Positions 2,159 to 64,000 of a stretch of DNA of 64,000 nucleotides are shown here, piece by piece (within the stretch, counting starts at the first letter, position 1; each line of letters starts with the position of its first letter). The DNA is from Escherichia coli. GTDB taxonomy: Bacteria; Pseudomonadota; Gammaproteobacteria; Enterobacterales; Enterobacteriaceae. Both the position numbers and the translations under genes were made by a program. The DNA lies in assembly GCF_003018235.1 (NCBI RefSeq), contig NZ_CP027437.1. One strand, written 5' to 3'. Below the pieces are notes generated by a model, which searched no databases, was not told the DNA's origin, and worked only from the letters and a program-made list of their open reading frames with translations.

Positions 2159-3115
2159 TCAGGGAGCTAGTTGCGTGGTATAGTTGGCAGCGACCCAACG
2201 ATAACCCTTGCTGTTGCTTTTAACATGCCCCAGGCCAGGGAATGAGATATGGGCAGCTGCCACCCAGTAACCACCCTGAGCCGCATGTTTTAATACTCGC
2301 TCACGGGTTTTTACCGCTTGCTGTTGATCCACATCGAAATGTATCGCCACGTGAGGATCCGGCATCTGCACTGCTTTGGCATGAATAATATCACCCCACA
2401 ACACTAGCGTCTGGCCTTCACTCTCCACTGTGTACATCACGCTTCCAGGTGTATGGCCGGCCGTTGAGGTGGCCGTAATGTCTGCAAATACCGTTGCCGG
2501 TGCGATAAAGGTTTTCAGCTGACCTGCGTTGATCACTGGGCGGATGGTCTGCTCCGATTCGACAAAGGTGTGCTTCTGACTCTCTTCTACTTTCGAGGCA
2601 TTCGCCGGATTAAGCCAGAAATCCGCATCTTTCTGCTCAACGAATACCTGGGCGTTAGGGAAAGCTGGTTTGCCCTGACGGGAGATGCCACCAGAGTGGT
2701 CGGCATGAATATGCGTCAGCAGCACGGCATCAATGGTTTCAGCCGGATAGCCAGCAGCTGCCAGGTTCTCAAGCAGTTGGCCTCCATTGTTGCCAAACAG
2801 ATCGCCCGCACCGGCATCAATCAACACGCGTTGCTGACCATTATCAATAACAAATGCATTGATTGAAGTCTCCGTATGGGGTGTCAGAGAATCCTTTGCC
2901 AGTTGCTGGCGCAGTTTATCGGCAGGAATGTGGGTGAGTAATTTATCTAGCGGAATTGTCACCGTGCCGTCGGAGACGGCGGTAATACGTAGTTTGCCCA
3001 ATATCATGCGGTAATAGCCCGGTGCTTGTGTATCAGGAGGGGGCACAGGTATAGGCGTTGCTAACGCATTTACGGAGAGTACCAGTGAGGTCACCAGAGT
3101 CAGCAAAAGTTTCAT
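2159..3115 (-). CDS. Secreted metallo-beta-lactamase-fold hydrolase (unknown substrate)
   Basis: 318-aa ORF with N-terminal signal peptide (MKLLLTLVTSLVLSVNALA) and HxHxDH motif (THIHADHSGG); not part of the K-12 gene order at this position. Confidence 0.75.
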   Translation of the reverse strand: MKLLLTLVTSLVLSVNALATPIPVPPPDTQAPGYYRMILGKLRITAVSDGTVTIPLDKLLTHIPADKLRQQLAKDSLTPHTETSINAFVIDNGQQRVLIDAGAGDLFGNNGGQLLENLAAAGYPAETIDAVLLTHIHADHSGGISRQGKPAFPNAQVFVEQKDADFWLNPANASKVEESQKHTFVESEQTIRPVINAGQLKTFIAPATVFADITATSTAGHTPGSVMYTVESEGQTLVLWGDIIHAKAVQMPDPHVAIHFDVDQQQAVKTRERVLKHAAQGGYWVAAAHISFPGLGHVKSNSKGYRWVAANYTTQLAP

Positions 3116-3196
3116 TCTATCCTCGATAAGTTCTGTTATTACAGTACGGGCACCAGTATCCTTTTGCGGATAACATCATTCAAATTGATTAATATA

Positions 3197-4132
3197 ATGA
3201 ACTCTATCAGAGAAAATGATTTAAACCGGGTCGACCTCAACCTGCTAATCGTGTTCCTGGTGCTACATCGAGAGGGGGAGCGTTTCACGTGCAGCCAACA
3301 AGTTACACTTGGGGCAGCCAGCAGTCAGTGGCGCGCTGGCACGGCTGAGAGAAATGTTTAACGACCCGTTATTTGTGCGCACGGCAAAGGGGATGGCACC
3401 GACACCACGTGCACAAGATCTGGTTACGGCACTACTGCCGGTGATGGATCAAATGCAGCAGGTGATTTTTCAAAGGCCAGTTTTTACCCCAGAACAGGAT
3501 CAGCATACGTTTCGCCTGGGGATGAGTGACTGGGTCGAACGCTGGCTGATGCCTGGAATGATGGCAGATATAGCCCAAATGGCACCCGGGATTCGCTTAC
3601 AAGTCACGGCATCCGATCCTTTCCAGGATGGCGAAAAAGTGCAACAGGATAAGGTGGACGTAGCAATCTCCGTCGTGGAGCAGGTGCCCGCCGGAGTGGA
3701 ACGAGAAGTGATCACTCAAATGGGTTTTTGTACGATGTGGCATCCGCTCCAGTTATCTATCACTTCACCGTTAACCCTTGATGTATATACTGAAACCGAC
3801 CATCTTTTGGTCTCTTATCGCGGTGCAAGCAGTAGCTCTATCGATCTGATTTTGGCTGACTGCGGGCGTGGGAAGTGCGTTACGTCACGCCAAATTTCTC
3901 ATCGTTACCGTTGATGTTGAGACAGATACCGGCTTTAGCGACCGTACCGCAGGGGCTGGCAGAAGGTTGGGTAGCCGATTATGGGTTGCAATTTGCCGAT
4001 GTCCCACTCGAGGTTCCTGCTTTTACGCTCTCTCTACTCTGGAATAAGCGGCGTAATAATGATGAGGCGCTGCGCTGGTTACTAGAGAAATTACGTGCAC
4101 GAATGCAGGGCTGGGAGATGTTTTCAGAATGA
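3197..4132 (+). pseudogene. LysR-family transcriptional regulator disrupted by two frameshifts
   Basis: Three consecutive ORFs (3164-3361, 3309-3914, 3875-4132) in frames 2/0/2 together encode one LysR protein (HTH ...SVSRAANKLHLGQPAVSGALARLREMF, then substrate-binding domain); +1 shift in G5 run at 3274-3278, -1 shift near 3860-3875. Confidence 0.7.
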
Positions 4133-4189
4133 GTTTGAAAACGTAACAATGTGAACAGAAAATAAGGGCTTTCTAAATTAAATAATTCC

Positions 4190-4329
4190 TGTTGAATATC
4201 ATCGTTAGCGACAACATCATCCACGACTACCAGCAGATTTGCACCGATGGTGGATGTTCAGGTCACGCCAACCTGGCCATGAACCAGAAGGTTATCAATA
4301 CGGGTTAAGAGAATATTGAGTAATGTCAT
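4190..4329 (-). pseudogene. agaB: Remnant of PTS EIIB (mannose family, agaB-like) with premature TGA at codon 24
   Basis: ATG at 4327-4329 with AGGAG RBS; MTLLNILLTRIDNLLVHGQVGVT*TSTIGANLLVVVDDVVANDDIQQ; conserved RID..L(I/V)HGQV EIIB motif; in-frame TGA at 4258-4260; similarity ends around 4190, before the convergent LysR pseudogene. Confidence 0.6.
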
Positions 4330-4383
4330 AGTCTTATCTCCTGTTATCCTTGTCGCCTTTCATTTTTCGTTCTTTTGGCGGCA

Positions 4384-4413
4384 ATAAAAAAGGCAGATAA
4401 TTAATTATCTGCC
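4384..4413 (-). terminator. Rho-independent terminator downstream of the C-S lyase gene
   Basis: Perfect palindrome GGCAGATAATTAATTATCTGCC (4392-4413) followed on the minus strand by a U-run (A-run 4384-4391 on plus). Confidence 0.5.
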
Positions 4414-4420
4414 CTGTGGT

Positions 4421-5593
4421 TTATGCGATTTTTTGCATCCTTTCTAATGCTTGTTCAAGCCAGTATCTTTGGGTGCCGAAGTTTAAACGTAAGTAGTTTT
4501 CACCGTTTTGCACATAATGGCTGCCATCTTCAATAATGACTCCAGCGTTGCGGGCAAAATGATTGACCCATTCGGTCGCGGAGCGTCCACTTTCACTGAC
4601 ATCAATCCATGCCAGATATGACGATTCTGGTGTCATCATTTTCCATTCAGGAAAATGCGTCTTGAGGGCATCATTAAGCCAGTGGGAGTTATTGCGTAAA
4701 TAGATATTTAATGCATCCAGCCACGGTCTTGCATGCTGATAAGCCAGTGTAATTCCCCAAACGCCAAAAATATTCGGCGAAGTGATTGAGTTCATTTCCA
4801 GTCTCTGGCGAAAACGCTGCCTCAATCCTTTATTCGGAATGACTGAGTAAGATGTTTTCAGTCCCCCTAGGTTAAAGGCTTTATTTGGTGATGTTAGCAG
4901 GACCAGATTATCGTGATCGGCACATCCGGTAGCCAGGCAACTGACAAACTCGCCTTCCAGCAGGTGCTCGGCATGGACTTCATCCACGACCAGAATGACG
5001 CCGTAACGTTTACATAAGTCCGAAACCTGGCGAATCTCATCTGCCGTCCAGATTCGCCCGGAAGGGTTATGTGGAGAGCAGAAAAACCATAGTTTAGGTT
5101 TATGAAGTTTAAGCTGATCTTCAACCAGCGAAAAATCCAGTTGATAACGGTTATCCGCAATGCTTAACGGATTTGCCAGCACTTTAACCCCCTGGCGCTC
5201 TGTTGCCATGGCAAAAGGGTCATAGACTGGCGTATTCATCATGACGCTATCGCCCGGCTGGCAGAACGCCTGAACCATATAGTGCAGCGTTGAGACAGTA
5301 CCATAGGTTAGGGTGATCCAATTCTGCTCGATACTTACGTGGTGACGATCGCGCTGGAAGCCTATCACGGCCTCATAAAACTCATTAAAGGCGTATGTGT
5401 AGCCGAAAGTTCCGTGCTCAACAATCCGTTGAAAACCGTCAATTACCGCTGGTGGCGAAGTAAAATCCATATCAGCGATCCAAAGAGGGATAAAATCTTC
5501 TGCAACCGCACCGAAGCGTGAGCAGACAAACTGATGATCCCATTTGCGGCACTTGTCGCTTTTACGCTCGATAATTCTATCGAAATCGAACAT
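4421..5593 (-). CDS. PLP-dependent aminotransferase class I/II, MalY/PatB-type C-S lyase (cystathionine beta-lyase-like)
   Basis: 390-aa ORF, AGGAG RBS; N-terminus MFDFDRIIERKSDKCRKWD and overall pattern resemble E. coli MalY; 12 nt downstream of the PTS gene (operon). Confidence 0.85.
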   Translation of the reverse strand: MFDFDRIIERKSDKCRKWDHQFVCSRFGAVAEDFIPLWIADMDFTSPPAVIDGFQRIVEHGTFGYTYAFNEFYEAVIGFQRDRHHVSIEQNWITLTYGTVSTLHYMVQAFCQPGDSVMMNTPVYDPFAMATERQGVKVLANPLSIADNRYQLDFSLVEDQLKLHKPKLWFFCSPHNPSGRIWTADEIRQVSDLCKRYGVILVVDEVHAEHLLEGEFVSCLATGCADHDNLVLLTSPNKAFNLGGLKTSYSVIPNKGLRQRFRQRLEMNSITSPNIFGVWGITLAYQHARPWLDALNIYLRNNSHWLNDALKTHFPEWKMMTPESSYLAWIDVSESGRSATEWVNHFARNAGVIIEDGSHYVQNGENYLRLNFGTQRYWLEQALERMQKIA

Positions 5594-5605
5594 TTTTAAC
5601 TCCTG

Positions 5606-7177
5606 TTAAATTAAAGCTTCAAGGCCCGTTTTCACACTTTGAACTTGCGGGCCAATAATTACCTGCACACTGTGAGCATCCAGTACAACCACCGACAGGG
5701 CACCTGCATTCTTTAACGTGGCTTGATCCACTTTCGACATATCTTTCACCACCAAACGTAAACGAGTAATACAGTTATCCAGTGAATCAATATTTTCTTT
5801 TCCGCCAAGCGCACTCAAAATCACAGCATGATCATATTTAGATTTGCCTCGTGCTTTTGAATTTGCTGCAACAGCCTGTGCTGCATCCTCAGATGAGTCT
5901 TCACGGCCTGGGGTTTTAATATCATGCTTAAGGATGTACCAACGGAAAACAAAGAAATAAATAGCAAACCAAACAATACCCACCGGAAGTATTAAATACC
6001 ATTTAGTAGAAGTACCCTGCATGATACCAAATATTAATAAATCCAAAATCCCGCCATCAGTATTACCGATAGTCACGCCCAGGATTGCCATAACCATTAA
6101 GGCCAGACCGGACATGATAATATGGAATATATACAACGCAGGAGCAATAAAGAGGAATAAAAACTCAATTGGTTCAGAAATGCCAGTAACAACAGATACT
6201 AATACGCCTGAAAGCAGTAAGCCTTTAATTACAGGACGATTTTCTGGTTTGGCTGTACGATAAATTGCGTAAGCCACAGCAGGCAAACCAAACATAAAGG
6301 TTGGCATAAAGCCTTGGGATAAAAACGCAGTAACATGTGGGCTAAAGGGAAGACCGGCTTTTAATTCTGCATAGAAAATATTGAGTGCTCCGGCAACTTC
6401 ATGACCGTCGACAATTTCTGTACCGCCCGCAGGTGTGAAGCGAACCATTGCAAGCAAGATATGATGTAGCCCGAAAGGCTTAAGCAAAAGCACACCAACG
6501 CCATAAAGGAACGGGCCGAATACGCTGGTACTTTGAATAATGTGGCCAATACCAGCAATACCCATTGCAACATAGGTCCAGAGCAAAGGAATGGCCTGGC
6601 CTACTAATGATAATGTTAGCGAAGTGATGATGGGTACGAAGCGGATACCGCTAAAGAAGGCAAAGGCATCATGTAATACAGTATCCTGAAAACGTTCGTG
6701 GAGAAAATAAGTTATTACCCCGGCGATGATGCCACCTAAAACGCCCATCTCTAAGGTTTGAATACCTAATACTACAGATTGACCAACCTGCTTCATCGTG
6801 GCAGCATCGGCAAGTTGATGGGTAACAGTGAGATAATAATTAATACTCATGTTCATTAGCATATAGCCAACAAAACCTGAATATGCGCCTACTGCTTTAT
6901 TTCTCTTTGCCATTCCTAATGGAATTGCAATAGCAAACATAACAGGTAGATAAGTAAATGCAAAGCCACCTACCATTGCAATAAAGCCAAATGTAAGTTG
7001 GGTAAGCTCACCACCTAAAAAGGGGAAGTTATTAATTGTTGAGGGGCTGGTTACTGAACTACCTATACCTAACAGAAGTCCCATAAAAGCGAGTAATGAT
7101 ACTGGGAACATAAATGTTTTCCCTAAACTTTGGAAAAACTCCCAGACCCGTGACTTTATAGACTTTTCCTGTGTCAT
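5606..7177 (-). CDS. PTS glucose/maltose-family EIICB component (MalX-like)
   Basis: 523-aa ORF; membrane EIIC domain followed by EIIB domain with the conserved phospho-cysteine motif NCITRLR; AAGGAG RBS; resembles MalX/PtsG. Confidence 0.85.
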   Translation of the reverse strand: MTQEKSIKSRVWEFFQSLGKTFMFPVSLLAFMGLLLGIGSSVTSPSTINNFPFLGGELTQLTFGFIAMVGGFAFTYLPVMFAIAIPLGMAKRNKAVGAYSGFVGYMLMNMSINYYLTVTHQLADAATMKQVGQSVVLGIQTLEMGVLGGIIAGVITYFLHERFQDTVLHDAFAFFSGIRFVPIITSLTLSLVGQAIPLLWTYVAMGIAGIGHIIQSTSVFGPFLYGVGVLLLKPFGLHHILLAMVRFTPAGGTEIVDGHEVAGALNIFYAELKAGLPFSPHVTAFLSQGFMPTFMFGLPAVAYAIYRTAKPENRPVIKGLLLSGVLVSVVTGISEPIEFLFLFIAPALYIFHIIMSGLALMVMAILGVTIGNTDGGILDLLIFGIMQGTSTKWYLILPVGIVWFAIYFFVFRWYILKHDIKTPGREDSSEDAAQAVAANSKARGKSKYDHAVILSALGGKENIDSLDNCITRLRLVVKDMSKVDQATLKNAGALSVVVLDAHSVQVIIGPQVQSVKTGLEALI

Positions 7178-7314
7178 TTAATAGACTCCTTGATTTTTAT
7201 AAGCATAGTTTCAAGGTCATGAAAAAGTAATCATGACCTTTTATATTTGTGAGGTAAGTTGTTTTTTATTGTCTGAATACAGCTGCTAAGAAACTGTTAT
7301 TCACATATTTTTAA

Positions 7315-8184
<870 letters not shown>

Positions 8185-9339
8185 TTATGCCTGCCACGGA
8201 TGAATGATTACGCCTTGCACCACGCGGTTAACGGTGCCACTGGCTGATGGGGTATCCGGCGTATTGCCCATGTGCAGCGACTGCATCAGTGCAAACGTCT
8301 GGGCGTACATCAGGAAGCAAAATGCCTGCTCAACGTCGATAAAGTGACGGGACGGCGGCAGGATGATATGTGGACCGGCGGTAATAACGTCGTTGCTTTC
8401 CGCGGCGATAGCGATTACGCGCATCGCCTGGTTGTCACGACGAAGTTCAGCCAGCAGATCAAGATCATACTGGCGGGTGTAAGGGTGGCTGGAGACAAAT
8501 ACCACCACCAGCGTTTCGTTATCGACCAGCGATTTTGGTCCATGACGGAATCCGGTCGGGGAATCATAAAAGGCCGCCAGTTTACCCGCCGTCAGTTCCA
8601 GTACTTTCAGCGCCGACTCGCGTGCTGCGCCCTGTAAGCCACCGCTGCCGAGATAAACGATCCGTTTCCACGGTGCGTAACCAAACACACCTTCGCTGAA
8701 ATCGCTCAGTGAGGTTAGGATCGCCTGGCAACGATCCGCCACGTCGCGGAAGCTCTGGCTGTTGATCGTCTCAGGTGCGAAAACCGCGAGGCAGCTGGCC
8801 ATCATGGTGGTAATGCTGCTGGTCATCGCAAAGCCGCGATCGTGCGTTTCTGCGGGCATCAGCAGGGCAAACGCGTTGTCGCTGTTGATCGCGTTTTGGT
8901 AAAGAGCGCCCGCTTCGTTGCAGGTGATCGGCAGGTGATAGCACTCGGGTACAAATTGATTTGCCAGTTCCACGGCGGCGACGCTTTCCGGGCTGTTGCC
9001 GGATCGACCGAAGGAGATCAACAGCAGCGGATGAGCTGGATTCAGGTAGTCCATCGGATTGGTGACCAGATCGGTGGTCGGTACGGCGCTGAAGTTTTTA
9101 CCGGTATGGCTGGCGAGCCACGGCGCGATGATGTCACCGATAAATGCCGAGGTTCCGGCTCCGGTCAGGATTACCCGCAGATTCTCTTTGCGCAGTAACG
9201 GTTCAAGGAAGTTATTGAGCGCGGAACGTAGCGCGTCGATGTTGGTGAGTGAACGGATCCATGCGCGAGGCTGATGGCGGATCTCTTCTTCAGTCCATGT
9301 ACCGGTTGCGGCAGCAGCAGGGGTGTAATTTTCTGGCAT
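8185..9339 (-). CDS. agaS: Galactosamine-6-phosphate deaminase/isomerase AgaS (SIS domain)
   Basis: 384-aa ORF, tandem SIS domains, matches recalled AgaS length and N-terminus. Confidence 0.9.
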   Translation of the reverse strand: MPENYTPAAAATGTWTEEEIRHQPRAWIRSLTNIDALRSALNNFLEPLLRKENLRVILTGAGTSAFIGDIIAPWLASHTGKNFSAVPTTDLVTNPMDYLNPAHPLLLISFGRSGNSPESVAAVELANQFVPECYHLPITCNEAGALYQNAINSDNAFALLMPAETHDRGFAMTSSITTMMASCLAVFAPETINSQSFRDVADRCQAILTSLSDFSEGVFGYAPWKRIVYLGSGGLQGAARESALKVLELTAGKLAAFYDSPTGFRHGPKSLVDNETLVVVFVSSHPYTRQYDLDLLAELRRDNQAMRVIAIAAESNDVITAGPHIILPPSRHFIDVEQAFCFLMYAQTFALMQSLHMGNTPDTPSASGTVNRVVQGVIIHPWQA

Positions 9340-9520
9340 AACTCAATCCTTAGTCTGATGAACTTGACGTCGGGCGTTGTCGCTTTCGCTTACCTTTCGT
9401 TTCATTTCACTTGGTGATGTCTTTCGTTGATTAAAATCTATAGAAAAGAAACTGAAAGTTCAATGGAGAAAAAAGAAATAAAACGAAATTTGTGATCATT
9501 GAAAGAAAAGACAAGGGAAG
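9340..9520 (-). promoter_or_regulatory. agaS promoter region with AgaR-type operator repeats
   Basis: Arrays of TTTC/GAAA repeats (cgctttcgcttacctttcgtttcatttcac; gaaactgaaagtt; aaacgaaatttg) typical of DeoR-type AgaR operators upstream of agaS. Confidence 0.45.
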
Positions 9521-9560
9521 ATTAAAGGATGGCGTGATGACGTTGCTATGTTCACCGATT

Positions 9561-9614
9561 GCCGGATGCGGCGTACCGTAGGTCAAAGAAGACGCGTCAG
9601 CGTCGCATCCGATA
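9561..9614. repeat. REP (repetitive extragenic palindromic) element pair
   Basis: GCCGGATGCGGCG ... CGTCGCATCCGATA inverted units between agaA stop and agaS promoter. Confidence 0.5.
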
Positions 9615-9688
9615 CCCTGCACAGAGCACAACGAAAGAAAAAGAAAGGCCTTACGGGGGAAGTGAAGGCCCAATAAAGGAGCAAACCA

Positions 9689-10822
9689 TCAAAACGAAGC
9701 TAATTGACCCTGAATCCAGATTTGTTGCACATGCAGCCCGCTATCCAGCGCAACGATGCTGGCGCGTTTGCCCGGTTTAAGCGATCCCAGAACATCATCA
9801 ACACCCAGCATTTGCGCCGGATGCAGCGACGCCATATGGATGGCTTCGGCAGGCGTTACACCCGCCAACTCAACCATGTTGCGCACTGCCGCATCGACAG
9901 ACAGCGTACTGCCCGCCAGCCCACCGGACGCGGTACGGACAACGCCACCGTGCATCTGCACTTCTTCACCACATAACGTATAGCGACCATCCGGCATCCC
10001 GGCTGCCTGCATCGCGTCGGTGATGAGCACGATTCTCTCTTTTGCACAGCAACAACACAGCGACATCGCCGCCGGATGCACATGATGACCATCGGCTATC
10101 AGTTCCAGCCAGGCGCGCTTGTCCGTTAATCCCGCACCAACCATTCCCGGTTCGCGGTGATGTAAACCTGTCATCCCGTTATAGCAATGCACCAGGCCGT
10201 CGGCACCAGCGTCAAACGCGGCACGGGTTTGTTGCCAGGTCGCCGCGCTATGCCCCAGCATCACCCGTACGTTTTGCTGTTTAAGATGGCGGATGGCCTG
10301 CAATGCCCCTTCTTTTTCCGGTGCCAGCGCTACCACGCGCAAGGTGTGCTGAGAAACGGCAATCAACTGATCCAGCTCGGCAATTTCCAGCTCGCGAAAC
10401 AGCTCCGGCGGATGCGCGCCTTTATTCTGCGGCGTGAAGTATGGTCTTTCGAGATAACTCCCCAGCACTTGCGCACCAGGTCCGCCGCGTTGGCAACGTT
10501 GAGCAATACGTTTCAGCGCCGCATGAATGGTATTAAGCGGCGCGGTTACGGTGGTCGGTAACCAACTGCCGACACCTTCGCGTGCCTTGTGCATTGCCAG
10601 CTTGTCGAGCACATCCGGCGCGTCATCCATTACATCAACGCCCGCACCACCGTGTACATGGGTGTCGATGTAAGCGGGGCAGAGCAGTTCCGCATCGCGT
10701 TCAGTCACGCCCACTGGAATCGGTTCGATTGCTGCGATTACACCGTCAGCAATACGCAACTGATGGTCATCGAGCCATCCCTCTTCAGTCAGCAGCCTTC
10801 TGGCGCGCAGAACGTGTGTCAT
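9689..10822 (-). CDS. agaA: N-acetylgalactosamine-6-phosphate deacetylase AgaA (full length)
   Basis: Start chosen at MTHVLRARRLL (377 aa; track ORF extends 7 codons upstream); metal-dependent amidohydrolase; start overlaps agaF stop by ATGA. Confidence 0.85.
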   Translation of the reverse strand: MTHVLRARRLLTEEGWLDDHQLRIADGVIAAIEPIPVGVTERDAELLCPAYIDTHVHGGAGVDVMDDAPDVLDKLAMHKAREGVGSWLPTTVTAPLNTIHAALKRIAQRCQRGGPGAQVLGSYLERPYFTPQNKGAHPPELFRELEIAELDQLIAVSQHTLRVVALAPEKEGALQAIRHLKQQNVRVMLGHSAATWQQTRAAFDAGADGLVHCYNGMTGLHHREPGMVGAGLTDKRAWLELIADGHHVHPAAMSLCCCCAKERIVLITDAMQAAGMPDGRYTLCGEEVQMHGGVVRTASGGLAGSTLSVDAAVRNMVELAGVTPAEAIHMASLHPAQMLGVDDVLGSLKPGKRASIVALDSGLHVQQIWIQGQLASF

Positions 10823-11253
10823 ATTCCTTCCTCGACCGGACATTCTTCATGGCAGCGGCCTAACTCGTCCACCAAACTGGTCAGCCCACGGTGTCCACAC
10901 TCCAGCGCCTGCACACGGAACTCTTCACCGCTTAACCCTTCGCGCTCCAGCACCATCTCCAGTAGCAGTTGCAAATTGGTGCCGGTGATCACTTCACAGC
11001 CCGGTTTTTGCATCGCCAGCGTTGAAGCTACGCGAAACGGCGTGCCGCCCAGCAAATCCGTCAGAAAAACAATGCCGTCTTCACAATCGAGTTGGGCGAT
11101 GGCCTCTTCAAGCTGCGATGTAAGCAGCGCGGTGCTTGAGGTTTCGGGAAAATCGATGGCAATAAACTGCGATTGCTCGCCGAGGATTTGCTTCATTGCT
11201 TTTTCTATGCCACTGGCAAACCCGCCATGCCCTGTCAAAATAATACTTAACAT
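10819..11253 (-). CDS. agaF: PTS mannose-family EIIA component (GalNAc-specific)
   Basis: 144-aa ORF MLSIILTGHGGFASG..., EIIA-Man fold; position between agaE and agaA. Confidence 0.85.
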   Translation of the reverse strand: MLSIILTGHGGFASGIEKAMKQILGEQSQFIAIDFPETSSTALLTSQLEEAIAQLDCEDGIVFLTDLLGGTPFRVASTLAMQKPGCEVITGTNLQLLLEMVLEREGLSGEEFRVQALECGHRGLTSLVDELGRCHEECPVEEGI

Positions 11254-11270
11254 CTAATACCTCATTGTAT

Positions 11271-12155
11271 TTAAAGGAAATGGCAGAATTTACCGACGAT
11301 GCCGAGAACCACGGTAACTGCAATCAGGCGCAGCGGACTCCAGCCGCGGCGTACCAGCCAGAACATGGTCAGGGTGTAGACCAGCGGTAAGAAGGCTGGC
11401 ATCAGTTTGTCGATAACATCAGCCTGTAACTTAACCACTGCGTCGCCAGCGGTGATTTCCAGCGTGGTGCTTAAACGAACATAGGTTGCCACCAGCGCGC
11501 CGATTACCGTCATCCCAACGATTGACGCAGCATGGCCGACTTTTTGGGTATTCGCTTTAATGAGTGGAATCGCCGCCACGCCCATGCGGTAAGCATAATG
11601 CGCCAGACCAAAACGCAGCCCCAGGTGTACCACGTTGAACAGCACAATAAAGACGACTGCGCCAAGAATAGAGCCTTGTAGCGCGAGGCTTGCGCCTATC
11701 CCGCCACAAATCGGCAGTAGCGTCAGCCAGAACATCGCATCGCCAATCCCGCCGAGCGGCGCACCGACGGCAATTTTGGTGCTCTGAATACTGTTAACGT
11801 CCTGCTTAGAACGCTCCATCGCAAGGATAATGCCGATAACAAACGTCACCAGAAACGGATGGGTATTGAAGAAACCCATATGCCCTTTCATGGCGCGCGC
11901 CAGGTCGCGTTTATTAGTGTGGATCTTTTTCAGAGCAGGCAGCAGACCGTACAACCAGCCGGAAGCCTGCATACGCTCGTAGTTAAAAGACGCTTGTAAC
12001 AGCATGGAACGCCAGGCGACGCGGTTGATATCTTTTTTCGTCAGCTCTGCGCCAATGCTCTGATCTTCATACACGTTTTCATTGACGCCTGTCAGCAGTG
12101 TTTCTTCGTTTTCACTGACGTTCGGCAGGGTGGTTTGATTAGATGCCATCTTCAA
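11271..12155 (-). CDS. agaE: PTS mannose-family EIID component (GalNAc-specific)
   Basis: 294-aa membrane ORF; start uncertain (12155 or 12149), overlaps agaW stop. Confidence 0.8.
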   Translation of the reverse strand: MKMASNQTTLPNVSENEETLLTGVNENVYEDQSIGAELTKKDINRVAWRSMLLQASFNYERMQASGWLYGLLPALKKIHTNKRDLARAMKGHMGFFNTHPFLVTFVIGIILAMERSKQDVNSIQSTKIAVGAPLGGIGDAMFWLTLLPICGGIGASLALQGSILGAVVFIVLFNVVHLGLRFGLAHYAYRMGVAAIPLIKANTQKVGHAASIVGMTVIGALVATYVRLSTTLEITAGDAVVKLQADVIDKLMPAFLPLVYTLTMFWLVRRGWSPLRLIAVTVVLGIVGKFCHFL

Positions 12156-12918
12156 ATTCCTCTTTCTGTGCCGCAGGTTGAGTCGGTTCAGGAGATTTAC
12201 GCAGCAGATCGATCAGCGCCATCGCCAGCGCGGCGGCAGCAATAGCCAGCACCGGTAACTTGAGCCAGGCTGCGGCAACAAAGCCCAGGATGAAGTAGGG
12301 GATGTAGACGTTTTTCATCATGATTTTCAGCAGCACGGCAAAACCGATTGCTGGCATGATGCCGCCCGCGACGCCGAGGCCGTCGATTAATCGTTGCGGC
12401 AGGACATCAATGATGGTTTTGGCATGTTCTGCGCCGAAGTAGATAGGCAGGAAAGCGCAGAGAAAATAGAAAGTGCCGAGTGCCAGCAGTGCCAGATAGT
12501 TCACGCGTTCAATGCCGCGAGTATCGGCGTTCTCCGCCATCCGGTCGCAGCGGGACATTACGCCAGACATCACCGAGAACAGGAAGGTAATCCCCATCTG
12601 TACTGCGACAGCGAAAGGTACGGCGACACCGACCGCGACATCGGGTTTCACGCCAGTAGTAATGGCAAACGCCGTGCCGACGATAGTACCGATAATCACG
12701 TTAGGCGGTTGTGCGCCTGCCAGCGGGGCCAGCCCCATCCACACCAGTTCCAGCGTACCGCCGGTTAAAATACCGGTATGCAGATCGCCAAGTACCAGCC
12801 CGACTAACGGGCCGAGGACCACCGGGCGGTGCATATGGGTTAAGCCGTTAAACATATCCAGGCCAGCGATAAAGGCGATAATGCCCAACGCGAATGCCTG
12901 CAACAGACTGATTTCCAT
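12139..12918 (-). CDS. agaW: PTS mannose-family EIIC component (GalNAc-specific), intact
   Basis: 259-aa polytopic membrane ORF. Confidence 0.85.
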   Translation of the reverse strand: MEISLLQAFALGIIAFIAGLDMFNGLTHMHRPVVLGPLVGLVLGDLHTGILTGGTLELVWMGLAPLAGAQPPNVIIGTIVGTAFAITTGVKPDVAVGVAVPFAVAVQMGITFLFSVMSGVMSRCDRMAENADTRGIERVNYLALLALGTFYFLCAFLPIYFGAEHAKTIIDVLPQRLIDGLGVAGGIMPAIGFAVLLKIMMKNVYIPYFILGFVAAAWLKLPVLAIAAAALAMALIDLLRKSPEPTQPAAQKEEFEDGI

Positions 12919-12928
12919 GATGAATCCC

Positions 12929-13402
12929 TCAAAGTAATTTAAAGAGGTCCACAGCAGGCTCTGTCGGGACGCCCTGAACGAAGCATTCCACCCCAGCGGC
13001 TTTCAGGTCGTTAAATGCTGCGATATCGCCCGCATCCACAGAAACCGTTTTGGCGATTTGTTGCTTGCCATTGGCGTAGTGCATATTGCCAACGTTAATG
13101 CGATTCACCGGAACGCCACCTTTCACCAGCGTCAGGAAATCGGCAGGTGTTTTACAAACCAGCAGGATTTTCTGTCGATCGGCGGCGCGATGAATGTTGT
13201 CGATGACTTTTTGCAGCGTCCAGAAACGTACGGCGATCCCTTCTGCCAGTACCATTTCCATCAGGTTTTGTTGTACCGGATCTTCGGCAACCTCATCGTT
13301 GGCTACCAGCACCAGATTTGCCCCCGCAAATCCGACCCACTGAACGCCGACCTGACCGTGAATCAAGCGTTCATCAATCCGGCTTAAAATAATATTTGGC
13401 AT
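12929..13402 (-). CDS. agaV: PTS mannose-family EIIB component (GalNAc-specific)
   Basis: Start chosen at MPNIILSRIDERLIHGQVGV (157 aa; track ORF has a 12-codon upstream extension that would overlap kbaZ). Confidence 0.85.
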   Translation of the reverse strand: MPNIILSRIDERLIHGQVGVQWVGFAGANLVLVANDEVAEDPVQQNLMEMVLAEGIAVRFWTLQKVIDNIHRAADRQKILLVCKTPADFLTLVKGGVPVNRINVGNMHYANGKQQIAKTVSVDAGDIAAFNDLKAAGVECFVQGVPTEPAVDLFKLL

Positions 13403-13424
13403 AGCGTGTTCCTCTTTGTTTTGC

Positions 13425-14705
13425 TTATTGGCCTTCACAGGCTGTGTGGTACTGCGCCAGGATGTCCTGAATATGGTTGATAATGAGTTCCCGTGGCGTC
13501 GGTTGCAGCTCGCCGGAGCGAACTTTCACGTATTGCAGCGGCAGATACTGGCTGATGAGCGGCAGCGGAATCGGTGAATCCGCCAGATTACGAACCAGAT
13601 GGGCGAAAGCGTCATCAATCTGGCTGTCCGGCCAGTAATAGCGCACGCGATCCGAGTAGCTATAACCACGCGCCAGACGACGCGCGTTGCCGTCACCGTG
13701 GTAGTGGCTTTGCCAGTATTCCGGGCGGTCGAGCATCACGTTTTCCAGCACCTGACGCAGACCGGAACAGGCTTTCGCTGGTACCAGTTCTTCTTCAATC
13801 GCCGCCAGAGAAAAAAGGGCTTCACGCAGGGCGAAGGTCAGCGCCGGGCCAACTTTCAGAATGGCAAAGTGGTCAATCACCAGCTGGCGCAACGATTGCG
13901 GCGTTTGGTAATCGGTAGAGTGCGCTTCGAAAATCAGCGTTTCGTAGTTTTCGACCATCTGGCTTAATGCGGTCGCTTTAGCTGGCTGATAATCAATAAC
14001 GTTGGTGTGATCGAATTCGACGCCGGGTTGAACCACCAGGGCAATAATGCGTGGCCAGATGGCATTCAGGCCCTGCTTTTCAAAGGCGTGGCGATGGGCT
14101 TCCAGTGTGGCGCGGGCGGCATCCGGCGTGGTGACCGCCAGCTCGCTTAAGGTTTCATGCGCGCCGCCAGGTACCGGTACTTCGGTACCAATGACATACT
14201 CCAGATCGGCCGCGCCAAAATGTTCACGGCAGGTTTCTTCCGCCACTTTCGCCAGACGAGCGGCGCGTTCGGCCACGATGTCATCAGTTAAGGGAATCGG
14301 ATCGTCCTGACAGGACATGCTGCAATCAAGGTGAATTTTTTTGAATCCTGCCGCCACGTAGCTTTTAATCAAATCATCGGCATTGGCCATTGCCTGAGCG
14401 GCAGGCAGGTTTTGCCAGCGGTTTGGCCCCAGATGGTCGCCACCCAGAATCAACGCATCCTGTGGGAAATTCAACGAGTCGGCGAGCTGACAAACAAAGC
14501 CGCGAAAATCGGCGGGCGTCATTCCGGTATAACCGCCGAACTGGTCCACCTGATTGGAGGTTGCTTCAATCAGTAACGGTGTTTGGTTTGCACTGGCGTA
14601 GCGGATTGCAGCTTCCAGCACCAGCGGATGTGCGGAACAAACGGCATAAATCCCATTTGTTTTGCCCTCTTTGTGCTGTCTCACCATTTCTGTCAGATGT
14701 TTCAC
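13425..14705 (-). CDS. kbaZ: Tagatose-bisphosphate aldolase non-catalytic subunit KbaZ
   Basis: 426-aa ORF, GTG start; [33 protein letters not shown]... Confidence 0.9.
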
Positions 14706-15817: not shown

Positions 15818-16282
15818 TCAATGGGTTTCTTCTGTCTCTCGGGTGAGGGTTTCCCAGTCGGCAGGAGGATGTCCTCTTTTTAACATTTTGCTGAATACGG
15901 TATAGGCATCTGTTTTTTTACCGTAGGTGCGCAGAGTGTTTTCATCGTTCATCCATCCCAGAATGATGACTTTCTCTTTTTCACTATAACGAAAGAAGAG
16001 ACGATAACGACCAGCACCAAATTTTACCCGTGACCAGTCTTTATTTTTCCCAGAGCCTAACGACTTGCCATGACGGAATGCCGGTGATGATGGATTGACC
16101 GTGATATGCTCCTCAATCACTTTATGGACTACCGCCAATAACTTTGTGGCGGCTTTTCTCTGATAATTTTCAGGATCTTTTCCCTTTAATATCTCGACTT
16201 CGGCAACTAAAGCGTCGTAGGTTTCCTGAAAACAGGGATGAGCATATAGCGCCCAACCATTAACCCTTTGTGGAAAATCCAT
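15818..16282 (-). CDS. yhaV: Type II toxin YhaV (ribosome-dependent mRNA interferase)
   Basis: 154-aa ORF MDFPQRVNGWALYAHPCFQETYDALVAEVE...; overlaps prlF stop by 1 nt. Confidence 0.9.
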   Translation of the reverse strand: MDFPQRVNGWALYAHPCFQETYDALVAEVEILKGKDPENYQRKAATKLLAVVHKVIEEHITVNPSSPAFRHGKSLGSGKNKDWSRVKFGAGRYRLFFRYSEKEKVIILGWMNDENTLRTYGKKTDAYTVFSKMLKRGHPPADWETLTRETEETH

Positions 16283-23509: not shown

Positions 23510-24697
23510 CTATATTGCATTTAAAAGGTCGTAATTATACGTATAGTCCTCTCTGGTAAAATATTGATTCTCTGAGTTATAAGCTTCATATGTATTATAT
23601 TTTACGACTTCAAAGCAATTGTCTGAAGAATTTTCGTCTTTCTCGAGTGTATTATCTGGAAGGAATTCCTCTGAGCTAGAGTCCTCTATGTTTAAATCTG
23701 TATTGTAATTAATTTTTGGATCGATTAGATAAGCATTTCCTTTGACGCTTTCATAATCTTTAATGATTATATCGATGTAATAATCTATTTTTTCTGATGA
23801 GAATGCTTTCATCTCTGGTAATCTAATTCTGTTCAAGTAATTGTTAATTTTCGATGAGCTTTTATATATTTCTTTTGTTAATTCATTTTCTAATTCATCT
23901 GTTAGAGTTGCTCTTGGTATAGATTCTATAATTGCAAGTCTCATAATTTTTAATTGTTCTTCGGTAATATCCCCAAGCGCATTTAAACAACTTTCGACAA
24001 GCTTAATTTTTTCTTCAGAATACATATCGCTAATGCTTGTTATAACAGGCGTTATTTTTAGTAAATAATCCCAGGAGATTGTGGCGTTTTGTGTTGAACT
24101 AACGAAATTTACCTGAAACATGTTGGCATTAGTAAAATCTGTGTCATCCAATTTAAAAGGATTTAAAATTGTATTGGCCATATGTTTATCTGTAAAATCA
24201 TAAAGTTCTAAATCGACATTCCGTAAGTCCAGAGAGGATAGATCAACTATACCTCCAGTCCCACAACTAAAGATTACGTTCAACCTCCTGATTTCATTGT
24301 AAATGTCTTTCAATGGGCAATTAACATTGATATTGCCTGTGGATATTTCCTGGTTTTTTAACGGTTCATTAATGGTAAGTTCACAGGTATTGTCTGATCG
24401 TTGAATAATTCGGGCGTTATAACCTAAAAAATCCAGACGAAGAGACGAGTCATTATAAAGAATTACATTTTGTAAGTACGCTAATTCTTTTTGAAAATCA
24501 CCAGTGATAATGCATTTCCCACCTGGTTGTAACGCGTTAAGTAAAGTGACCATTTGAACAGAGGTCTGTTTTAGTTTTTCTATGCCTGGTGCTAGTGCTT
24601 CGAGGTTATTTCCTATGGGGCTTTCAGGAAGATCATTCATTTTTCGACGGGCTAAATCACAACTAATATCATTACCAATTGATGAAACAGGGGACAT
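23510..24697 (-). CDS. yhaC: Pentapeptide-repeat-like protein YhaC
   Basis: 395-aa ORF in strongly AT-rich DNA; matches recalled YhaC position and length. Confidence 0.8.
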   Translation of the reverse strand: MSPVSSIGNDISCDLARRKMNDLPESPIGNNLEALAPGIEKLKQTSVQMVTLLNALQPGGKCIITGDFQKELAYLQNVILYNDSSLRLDFLGYNARIIQRSDNTCELTINEPLKNQEISTGNINVNCPLKDIYNEIRRLNVIFSCGTGGIVDLSSLDLRNVDLELYDFTDKHMANTILNPFKLDDTDFTNANMFQVNFVSSTQNATISWDYLLKITPVITSISDMYSEEKIKLVESCLNALGDITEEQLKIMRLAIIESIPRATLTDELENELTKEIYKSSSKINNYLNRIRLPEMKAFSSEKIDYYIDIIIKDYESVKGNAYLIDPKINYNTDLNIEDSSSEEFLPDNTLEKDENSSDNCFEVVKYNTYEAYNSENQYFTREDYTYNYDLLNAI

Positions 24698-39770: not shown

Positions 39771-40127
39771 TTAATTTGAACCAAATTTCGGATCGTTTCC
39801 GTAACGATTGCTGCCAGAATTGCCCTCTAAACAGGCAAATACAAACAGAACTAACCAGCCAATGATCGGTACCAGATAGAGAAGCGCCCACGCACCTGAA
39901 CGGTCAGTATCATGCAGACGACGAACGCACAGAGCAATGACCGGAATGATTGTTGCTGCCAGGTAAATGAGAGAAAGGAACGGAAACTCTAAACCTAAAA
40001 TCAATTGAATGACATTGATAATAGCGCCGACGATGGCGTTAATCAGAGTAAACATCCAGTACTCTTTACGACGTGCGCGACCAGAGAAACCAACATAATT
40101 TTTTAATACGGATAAATACCACTGCAT
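39771..40127 (-). CDS. yhaI: DUF805 inner-membrane protein YhaI
   Basis: 118-aa ORF MQWYLSVLKNYVGFSGRARRKEYWMF... Confidence 0.8.
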   Translation of the reverse strand: MQWYLSVLKNYVGFSGRARRKEYWMFTLINAIVGAIINVIQLILGLEFPFLSLIYLAATIIPVIALCVRRLHDTDRSGAWALLYLVPIIGWLVLFVFACLEGNSGSNRYGNDPKFGSN

Positions 40128-57379: not shown

Positions 57380-58516
57380 ATGAGCCACTTAGACAACGGT
57401 TTCCGTTCACTGACACTACAACGTTTTCCGGCGACGGATGACGTTAACCCACTACAGGCGTGGGAAGCGGCGGATGAATATTTGCTGCAACAGTTGGACG
57501 ACACAGAAATCCGCGGCCCGGTGTTGATCCTGAATGATGCCTTTGGTGCGTTAAGTTGTGTGCTGGCGGAACATAAGCCATACAGCATTGGCGACTCATA
57601 CATCAGCGAACTGGCGACGCGCGAGAATTTACGCCTCAACGGGATTGATGAGTCGAGCGTGAAGTTTCTCGACAGCACCGCCGACTACCCGCAACAGCCG
57701 GGCGTGGTACTGATCAAAGTACCGAAAACACTGGCGTTGCTGGAACAACAACTGCGTGCGCTGCGCAAAGTGGTCACGCCGGATACACGTATTATTGCCG
57801 GTGCCAAAGCCCGTGACATCCACACTTCCACGCTGGAACTGTTCGAAAAAGTGCTCGGCCCGACCACCACCACGCTGGCATGGAAGAAGGCACGCTTAAT
57901 TAACTGTACTTTCAACGAGCCGCCGCTGGCCGATGCGCCGCAGACCGTTAGCTGGAAACTGGAAGGTACTGACTGGACTATCCACAACCATGCGAATGTC
58001 TTCTCCCGCACCGGGCTGGATATTGGCGCGCGCTTCTTTATGCAGCATCTGCCAGAGAATCTCGAAGGTGAGATTGTCGATCTCGGTTGTGGTAATGGCG
58101 TTATTGGTCTGACGCTGCTTGATAAAAACCCGCAGGCGAAAGTGGTGTTTGTCGATGAATCACCGATGGCGGTTGCTTCCAGCCGTTTGAACGTTGAAAC
58201 CAACATGCCCGAGGCATTGGATCGCTGCGAATTTATGATCAACAACGCGCTCTCCGGCGTTGAGCCTTTCCGCTTTAATGCTGTGCTCTGCAATCCGCCG
58301 TTTCATCAGCAACATGCGCTGACCGATAACGTCGCCTGGGAGATGTTCCACCACGCCCGCCGCTGTCTGAAAATCAACGGCGAGCTGTATATCGTTGCCA
58401 ACCGTCACCTGGATTACTTCCATAAACTGAAGAAGATTTTCGGCAACTGCACCACCATCGCCACGAATAATAAATTTGTGGTGCTGAAAGCGGTGAAGCT
58501 GGGGCGTCGTCGGTAA
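57380..58516 (+). CDS. rlmG: 23S rRNA m2G1835 methyltransferase RlmG
   Basis: 378-aa ORF with tandem methyltransferase domains; SAM motif VDLGCGNG. Confidence 0.9.
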
Positions 58517-58529
58517 GATTGGCAGCTAC

Positions 58530-58620
58530 CTGCCAGATAAGGCGTAAACGCCTTATCTGGCATACGTTCAGCACGTTACCCCCAGGTCGGATAAGACGCG
58601 GCAAGCATCGCATCCGGCAC
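58530..58620. repeat. REP/BIME cluster between convergent rlmG and fadH
   Basis: TGCCAGATAAGGCGTAAACGCCTTATCTGGCA and GTCGGATAAGACGCGGCAAGCATCGCATCCGGCAC units fill the 117-bp gap. Confidence 0.5.
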
Positions 58621-58633
58621 TTCAATGCACGAT

Positions 58634-60679
<2,046 letters not shown>

Positions 60680-60780
60680 TTATGTGGTCGGATGAGTTCT
60701 AATTTAGCCGTCGCCAGAGAAAAGGGAAAAGGGGAGTGCGGGGTTTGTGATGGGATTCAAAAAGAATACGCCCGGTGGTA

Positions 60781-60870
<90 letters not shown>

Positions 60871-60877
60871 TTGCAAA

Positions 60878-64000
<3,123 letters not shown>

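Follow-up and report, generated by a model that had tools for sequence, protein, structure and literature searches.

Among LysR-family regulators with solved structures, DntR lies closest to the gene described here (PDB 1utb, 2uyf, and 5ae4; E ~1e-45 over residues 8–298). DntR belongs to the NahR group and responds to aromatic compounds. The likeness extends to the HTH_1 plus LysR_substrate layout, a divergently oriented catabolic neighbor, and a T-N11-A dyad between the two genes, and the ancestral gene would, from its sequence, be classed as a DntR/NahR-like LysR regulator. The two systems differ in their targets, an aromatic dioxygenase operon there and a single secreted MBL hydrolase here, and the ligand differs too. 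The likeness holds at the level of the family only, and the copy studied here appears to be non-functional.

A second and more immediate parallel is provided by the frameshifted accessory-regulator pseudogenes of Escherichia coli and Shigella, labeled “frameshifted” by PGAP, which are likewise disrupted by small indels relative to intact alleles of their species, are fixed within a clone, and have intact neighbors. Nothing essential separates the present case from these genes: it is ordinary gene decay, yielding a lineage-specific pseudogene of a known kind. What it offers in addition is a surviving series of alleles through which the successive hits can be ordered.

The window, by which we mean the entire 64,000-nucleotide stretch that was analyzed (assembly GCF_003018235.1, contig NZ_CP027437.1), is E. 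coli chromosome, an assignment that agrees with the source names of proteins identical to its own; it carries lpoA and rsmI, followed by the aga, gar, and tdc clusters and, further along, uxa, fadH, and ygjK. An accessory segment between rsmI (1192–2055) and the aga cluster holds the LysR gene, whose full extent, as defined by alignment to intact E. coli alleles, is 3197–4132 on the + strand. We conclude with high confidence that this gene is a true pseudogene passed on by vertical descent within a clonal lineage of E. coli, that it was lost in two steps, and that the neighboring hydrolase was its likely target.

Reading frames, lesions, and the restored protein

As a sequence-only reading of the window had proposed, the gene is in pieces, and three reading-frame fragments were found on the + strand. 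Fragment A (3197–3361) comprises 54 codons, of which 27 are native and 27 encode out-of-frame residues, and ends in TAA. Fragment B (3309–3914) lies in the +1 frame relative to A, carries residues 28–224 in their true frame, and closes with a TGA at 3912–3914; gene callers begin it at the ATG at 3354 and report a 186-residue protein (P0002). Fragment C (3875–4132), again in the frame of A, supplies the last 85 residues of the effector domain before the TGA at 4130–4132, and is called from the ATG at 3914 as a 72-residue protein (P0001). Stops follow soon after each shift, also as anticipated: the TAA falls 82 nt past the first and the TGA 45 nt past the second. No complete domain is encoded by any of the three fragments, and the window copy lacks the single unbroken frame spanning both domains that characterizes a functional regulator of this type.

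The lesions were defined by aligning the window to two RefSeq-annotated intact alleles, each of 945 nt and 314 amino acids, from PapRG-06-5 (WP_163425381.1) and O145:H28 RM13514 (WP_029785796.1). The first is the extra G that had been suspected at 3274–3278 (+ strand), where the window has a run of five Gs and intact E. coli alleles read four. It is a +1 insertion into the ancestral G4 run at codons E26-G27-S28, just ahead of the helix-turn-helix proper, whose frame is lost; removing one G restores the sequence ...LHREGSVSRAANKLHLGQPAVSGALARL.... The G4 state occurs in the compared loci L001, L002, L006, and L007 and in the deletion-only assembly L022, and the G5 state in the window and seven near-identical assemblies.

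At the second lesion, four nucleotides, AAAA, have been deleted, with the junction between T3869 and G3870 (+ strand). Where the intact alleles have CGTAAAAGGG, that is, CGT-AAAA-GGG read as CGT AAA AGG GAA, the window has CGTGGG, with CGT directly abutting GGG. The event takes codon K225 together with the first base of R226, and its placement is unambiguous since the flanking bases are T and G. On its own, the deletion would leave a 238-residue product consisting of residues 1–224 and 14 aberrant residues. The sequence-only reading had described two opposite-sign homopolymer frameshifts, the second a 1-nt loss near 3860–3875. This was half right: the location and the net frame (−1) stand, whereas the size does not, as the whole A4 run is gone rather than a single slipped base. 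A further difference, a C-to-A change at 4132, brings the stop two codons earlier than in the 314-residue alleles and is harmless, given that intact 312-residue alleles carry the same change.

With both indels undone, a protein of 312 amino acids is recovered, the length of the ancestral product, in which the Pfam domains HTH_1 (residues 14–73; 4e-18) and LysR_substrate (residues 99–304; 4e-21) are both complete. The repaired protein thereby displays the arrangement expected of the family, namely, an N-terminal winged helix-turn-helix followed by a substrate-binding domain in a chain of ~300 residues, and it differs at one residue from P0009, a catalogued intact E. coli protein of 312 amino acids. 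The three-piece split is therefore not a chance arrangement of reading frames. The best-scoring NCBIfam equivalog models, BsrA (Pseudomonas) and LeuO, are matched over nearly their full length; membership was rejected for both, with 203 bits against a cut-off of 480 for BsrA and 121 against 262 for LeuO.

It could be argued that the gene is still expressed, either because ribosomes shift frame within the G run and close to 3869 or because the G tract switches length reversibly as a contingency locus, and the two lesions do sum to −3 nt, so that the start and end of the gene share a frame. This sum affords no rescue, as the start frame contains stops between the lesions, the first at 3359–3361. 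Furthermore, orthologues from E. coli and from four further genera are each read in one unbroken frame (304–314 residues), and the site conserved among orthologues that would mark a programmed frameshift is absent. Phase-variable repeats usually comprise 7–8 units or more. The G5 and A4 tracts are far shorter, and G5 is found throughout the double-lesion clade (eight members: the window plus seven assemblies); the gene possesses neither the long tract nor the length variation among close relatives typical of a contingency locus. Continued expression by either route is, in our judgment, extraordinarily improbable.

Independent assemblies and the allelic series

The broken products recur widely. 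The exact 186-residue P0002, including its aberrant tail ...CGRGKCVTSRQISHRYR, is present on ~20–23 contigs of a large public protein collection, and the exact 72-residue P0001 on 21–24 contigs of the same collection. Eight assemblies from independent SRA runs were checked at the DNA level, seven of which have both lesions (SRR35421096, SRR21461730, SRR18885539, SRR3033418, SRR21721971, SRR29299487, and SRR2102939) and one the deletion only. The seven, whose run accessions are widely scattered, are 99.94–99.99% identical to the window over 6.5–14.1 kb and differ from it by 1–9 SNPs each, several of these private to one assembly. The window has a private SNP of its own, a C-to-T change at 3254 (+ strand; L20F) revealed by comparison with the related assemblies, which marks it as an isolate distinct from all others compared. 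Because the lesions are shared by seven assemblies that are near-identical yet not identical, they have been inherited within a clonal lineage. Of the two options that the sequence-only reading had left standing, a real pseudogene or two sequencing errors, the first is borne out by these seven assemblies and by a sister lineage with an intact allele. The gene is broken relative to intact orthologues, and the break is reproduced in independent sequencing of the lineage, as expected of a genuine pseudogene.

The second option, that both frameshifts arose in homopolymer runs during sequencing or assembly and that the organism itself has an intact gene, has some initial appeal: one lesion falls within a run of Gs, where such errors are classically seen, and artefacts of this kind do occur at this locus, as in the assembly L018, where an A3 run in the LysR gene is accompanied by other homopolymer-length differences that split malX. 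Nevertheless, exactly the same two lesions recur in seven independently sequenced and assembled isolates, with an eighth showing the deletion by itself, and homopolymer miscalling does not typically erase a whole A4 run. The same assembly pipeline yields G4 and A4 in the sister lineage, which makes a shared artefact implausible. The remainder of the window points in the same direction. A tblastn comparison was made with 65 coding sequences of RM13514 (O145:H28), 62 of which have a counterpart in the window and three of which are absent from it. The LysR gene alone was disrupted, upholding the earlier statement that the rest of the genes in the window are free of frameshifts; lpoA and ygjJ are incomplete simply because the window ends inside them. 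As none of the other 61 compared genes is disrupted, systematic error is excluded and the event is local. We accordingly regard sequencing error as very improbable, and take the gene to be a true pseudogene.

Several further differences from RM13514 emerged from this comparison. Set against RM13514 (L013), the window at 58516–58634 and 60652–60881 is missing a higB–higA toxin–antitoxin pair between fadH and rlmG and a 514-residue hypothetical gene between ygjK and fadH. The yhaV toxin gene (15821–16282, − strand) is intact in the window and annotated with an internal stop in RM13514. At the amino acid level, yhaI (39774–40127) and yhaC (23513–24697) are 85.6% and 92.4% identical, respectively, to their O145:H28 counterparts, against 98–100% for typical neighbors.

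The locus as a whole is rare, being found in 63 of 5426 complete E. coli genomes. In 62 of these 63 it has the intact length (994 nt matched, compared with 991 for the window copy), and setting the repaired window allele against two others from E. coli gives a dN/dS of ~0.2; together, these figures indicate that the gene is kept by selection where it is present. Comparison with related genomes had been suggested as a check for an intact allele, and one does exist, in the form of the nearly identical P0009, carried on at least 18 contigs, as well as in the two inspected annotated genomes and in the SRA run SRR12377556. Within the gene, the two indels are the sole differences between the intact sister allele (L006/P0009) and the pseudogene, an identity which implies that the decay is recent. 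Two indels with zero substitutions in 936 nt is a somewhat more indel-rich outcome than neutral decay would be expected to produce.

The deletion-only assembly, L022 (SRR30658444), combines the AAAA deletion with G4 and encodes a 238-residue product with an intact DNA-binding domain, in addition to the 72-residue piece. The reciprocal allele, with G5 only, was sought in the public protein collection as a 275-residue product with a TTG start or a 260-residue product with an ATG start, and was not found in either form. Given an assembly that has the deletion with G4, and with no G5-only allele found, the most economical reading of the sequences is that the deletion came first and the G insertion second. 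The order depends on this one assembly, whose flanks are ~0.7% diverged from the window, and a recombinant history or a reversion from G5 to G4 may be entertained in place of a simple deletion-first succession.

Two other alleles bear on the history of the gene. In L018 (GCA_974490345.1), the A run of the LysR gene reads A3 at the position equivalent to 3869, which could be seen as part support for a 1-nt loss and for a route from A4 through A3 to A0. The same assembly lacks a G from the malX G4 run (equivalent to 7022), which divides malX into pieces of 456 and 53 residues, and has an extra A near 9674. This pattern suggests homopolymer errors of the long-read kind and an unreliable A3, and the route through L018 was set aside on account of these other homopolymer-length differences. 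In E. coli F9792 (L007), the gene has an independent −1 change in a C4 run (equivalent to 3484–3487) and is annotated as “frameshifted” in RefSeq; the gene may have been inactivated naturally a second time here, or the homopolymer may have been misread by long-read sequencing.

Among complete RefSeq E. coli genomes, identity to the window reaches at most 97.8% at the locus and at most 98.6% over 20 kb of core genes, ceilings which indicate that the lineage of the window is not represented in that set. An exact-match scan for the deletion junction among GTDB species representatives returned no occurrence; with one genome per species, the scan is uninformative on alleles within E. coli. Relative to L022, L018, and L006, the density of SNPs is ~1% in the flanks (~1–2500 and 7500–14200, covering lpoA, rsmI, agaS, and agaA onward) and near zero in the core of the island (2500–7500), a distribution that suggests recent spread of the island between backgrounds by recombination.

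The partner hydrolase and the candidate operator

Divergent from the LysR gene, across an intergenic region of 81 bp, lies an intact gene on the − strand (2159–3115) for an MBL-fold hydrolase of 318 amino acids with an apparent N-terminal signal peptide. Its closest relatives by PDB sequence search belong to the methyl parathion/dihydrocoumarin hydrolase lineage: 5hif, a reconstruction of the dihydrocoumarin hydrolase ancestral to methyl parathion hydrolase, is matched at E = 2e-87 and methyl parathion hydrolase itself (1p9e) at 4e-78. The best NCBIfam model is that of the AidB-family AHL lactonases (7e-60); membership in this quorum-quenching family was rejected, as the score of 203 bits lies below the cut-off of 360.

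The pairing of this hydrolase with the regulator is conserved beyond E. coli. Orthologous LysR proteins at 54–67% identity occur in Erwinia toletana, Serratia sp., Yokenella regensburgei, and Franconibacter pulveris, and in each of these genera the LysR gene divergently adjoins a Lactamase_B protein of 313–318 residues across a gap of 76–90 bp, while all other neighbors differ. Within E. coli, the pair stands beside a complete agaBCDI set in PapRG-06-5 and F9792 and beside a malX/malY-like module in O145:H28 and the window. Because the pair persists next to differing PTS modules and across four further genera, the regulator is assigned to the hydrolase rather than to the PTS. Both had been put forward as possible targets, and conservation of the pair favors the hydrolase over the variable PTS neighbor. 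Decay does not extend to the hydrolase: its gene is intact, and the exact protein is common to strains with an intact and with a broken regulator. From conserved synteny and the behavior of the family, the ancestral protein was most likely a dedicated, ligand-responsive regulator of the hydrolase. A literature search found no paper on this hydrolase–LysR pair.

Alignment of the intergenic regions of the five genera brings out a dyad, ATCATTCAAATTGAT, at 3175–3189, 8 nt upstream of the start codon, with a T-N11-A core running from T3176 to A3188. The divergent gene and the T-N11-A dyad are thus found together in all five genera, an organization typical of LysR-family loci, and the dyad, unbroken in the window, is presumed to be the operator of the LysR protein. 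A second conserved block, CAGTATCC (3154–3161), is present in the intergenic region of the same five genera (L014–L017 and E. coli) and, with the dyad, makes up a candidate operator. An inverted-repeat scan of the intergenic region gave weak pairs only, the comparative alignment being more useful, and a promoter and terminator scan was uninformative, its sole hit being a −10-like hexamer that overlaps the start codon.

The sequences on the other side of the pseudogene have a history of their own. An agaB-like PTS IIB remnant of ~55 N-terminal codons (4164–4329, − strand), annotated as a partial pseudogene in O145:H28, carries in the window a TGG-to-TGA nonsense change at the W24 codon (GQVGVT*TSTIGAN), and is a second decayed sequence adjoining the LysR pseudogene. 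It is followed by genes for a MalY/PatB-like C-S lyase (4421–5593, − strand) and a MalX-like PTS IIBC protein (5606–7177, − strand). Compared with L001 (7322–10189), these two genes replace agaB-agaC-agaD-agaI in the window (4421–7177), leaving the 5′ stub of agaB behind. Judged by this comparison of sequences, one module has taken the place of another within the aga locus, in the window as in O145:H28.

Proposed course and expected consequences of regulator loss

By analogy with divergent LysR pairs, the intact regulator would bind the T-N11-A dyad in the 81-bp intergenic region, control its own expression, and turn on the hydrolase upon sensing a small ligand, probably an aromatic compound or a lactone. 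Activators predominate among divergent LysR regulators, and this protein was probably one as well. In the first step of the proposed course, the AAAA deletion at codons 225–226 cut the effector domain short by its final 88 residues and left a 238-residue stub that kept its DNA-binding domain. In the second, insertion of a G into the G4 run at codons 26–28 wrecked the helix-turn-helix too. What is left today is three short open reading frames beside a presumed operator and a hydrolase gene that both remain intact. The lineage would thereby be expected to lose regulation, most likely induction, of the hydrolase, and to represent a natural regulator knock-out.

Such a succession of hits invites the question of whether inactivation was adaptive rather than neutral, with selection favoring either loss of the regulator or a second hit that removed a harmful DNA-binding stub. 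Several observations lean this way: the pseudogene has two indels and zero substitutions relative to the intact sister allele; the 238-residue stub with its helix-turn-helix could still occupy the operator, and the second lesion removes exactly this part; an independent −1 frameshift in the C4 run is annotated in F9792; and the double-lesion allele is found on 20–23 contigs against one for the deletion-only allele. However, the numbers are very small, and the contig counts are explained equally well if outbreak or surveillance isolates were sampled clonally. The F9792 frameshift, for its part, may be a long-read error, and the intact length in 62 of 63 complete genomes, with dN/dS of ~0.2, argues that loss is not generally favored. 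Adaptive inactivation is, on balance, unlikely. We are similarly doubtful that the inserted G was selected specifically as a suppressor of a stub that misregulated the hydrolase or other DntR-like boxes. If true, this scenario would explain both the commonness of the double-lesion allele and the occurrence of two indels without substitutions.

Understood as ordinary decay, the locus has practical as well as biological implications. For annotation, a single frameshifted LysR pseudogene is preferable to two or three small hypothetical proteins, the form in which gene callers now report it (186 and 72 residues). The two indels are clean markers of one clonal E. coli lineage, and the intact, deletion-only, and double-lesion alleles make up a small example of the stepwise decay of a regulator. 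As a by-product, the analysis delineates a conserved module in several enterobacterial genera, consisting of a DntR-like LysR protein, a secreted protein resembling methyl parathion and dihydrocoumarin hydrolases, and an operator-like dyad. The lineage of the window, as a presumptive natural regulator knock-out, could be used to study this hydrolase–LysR module.
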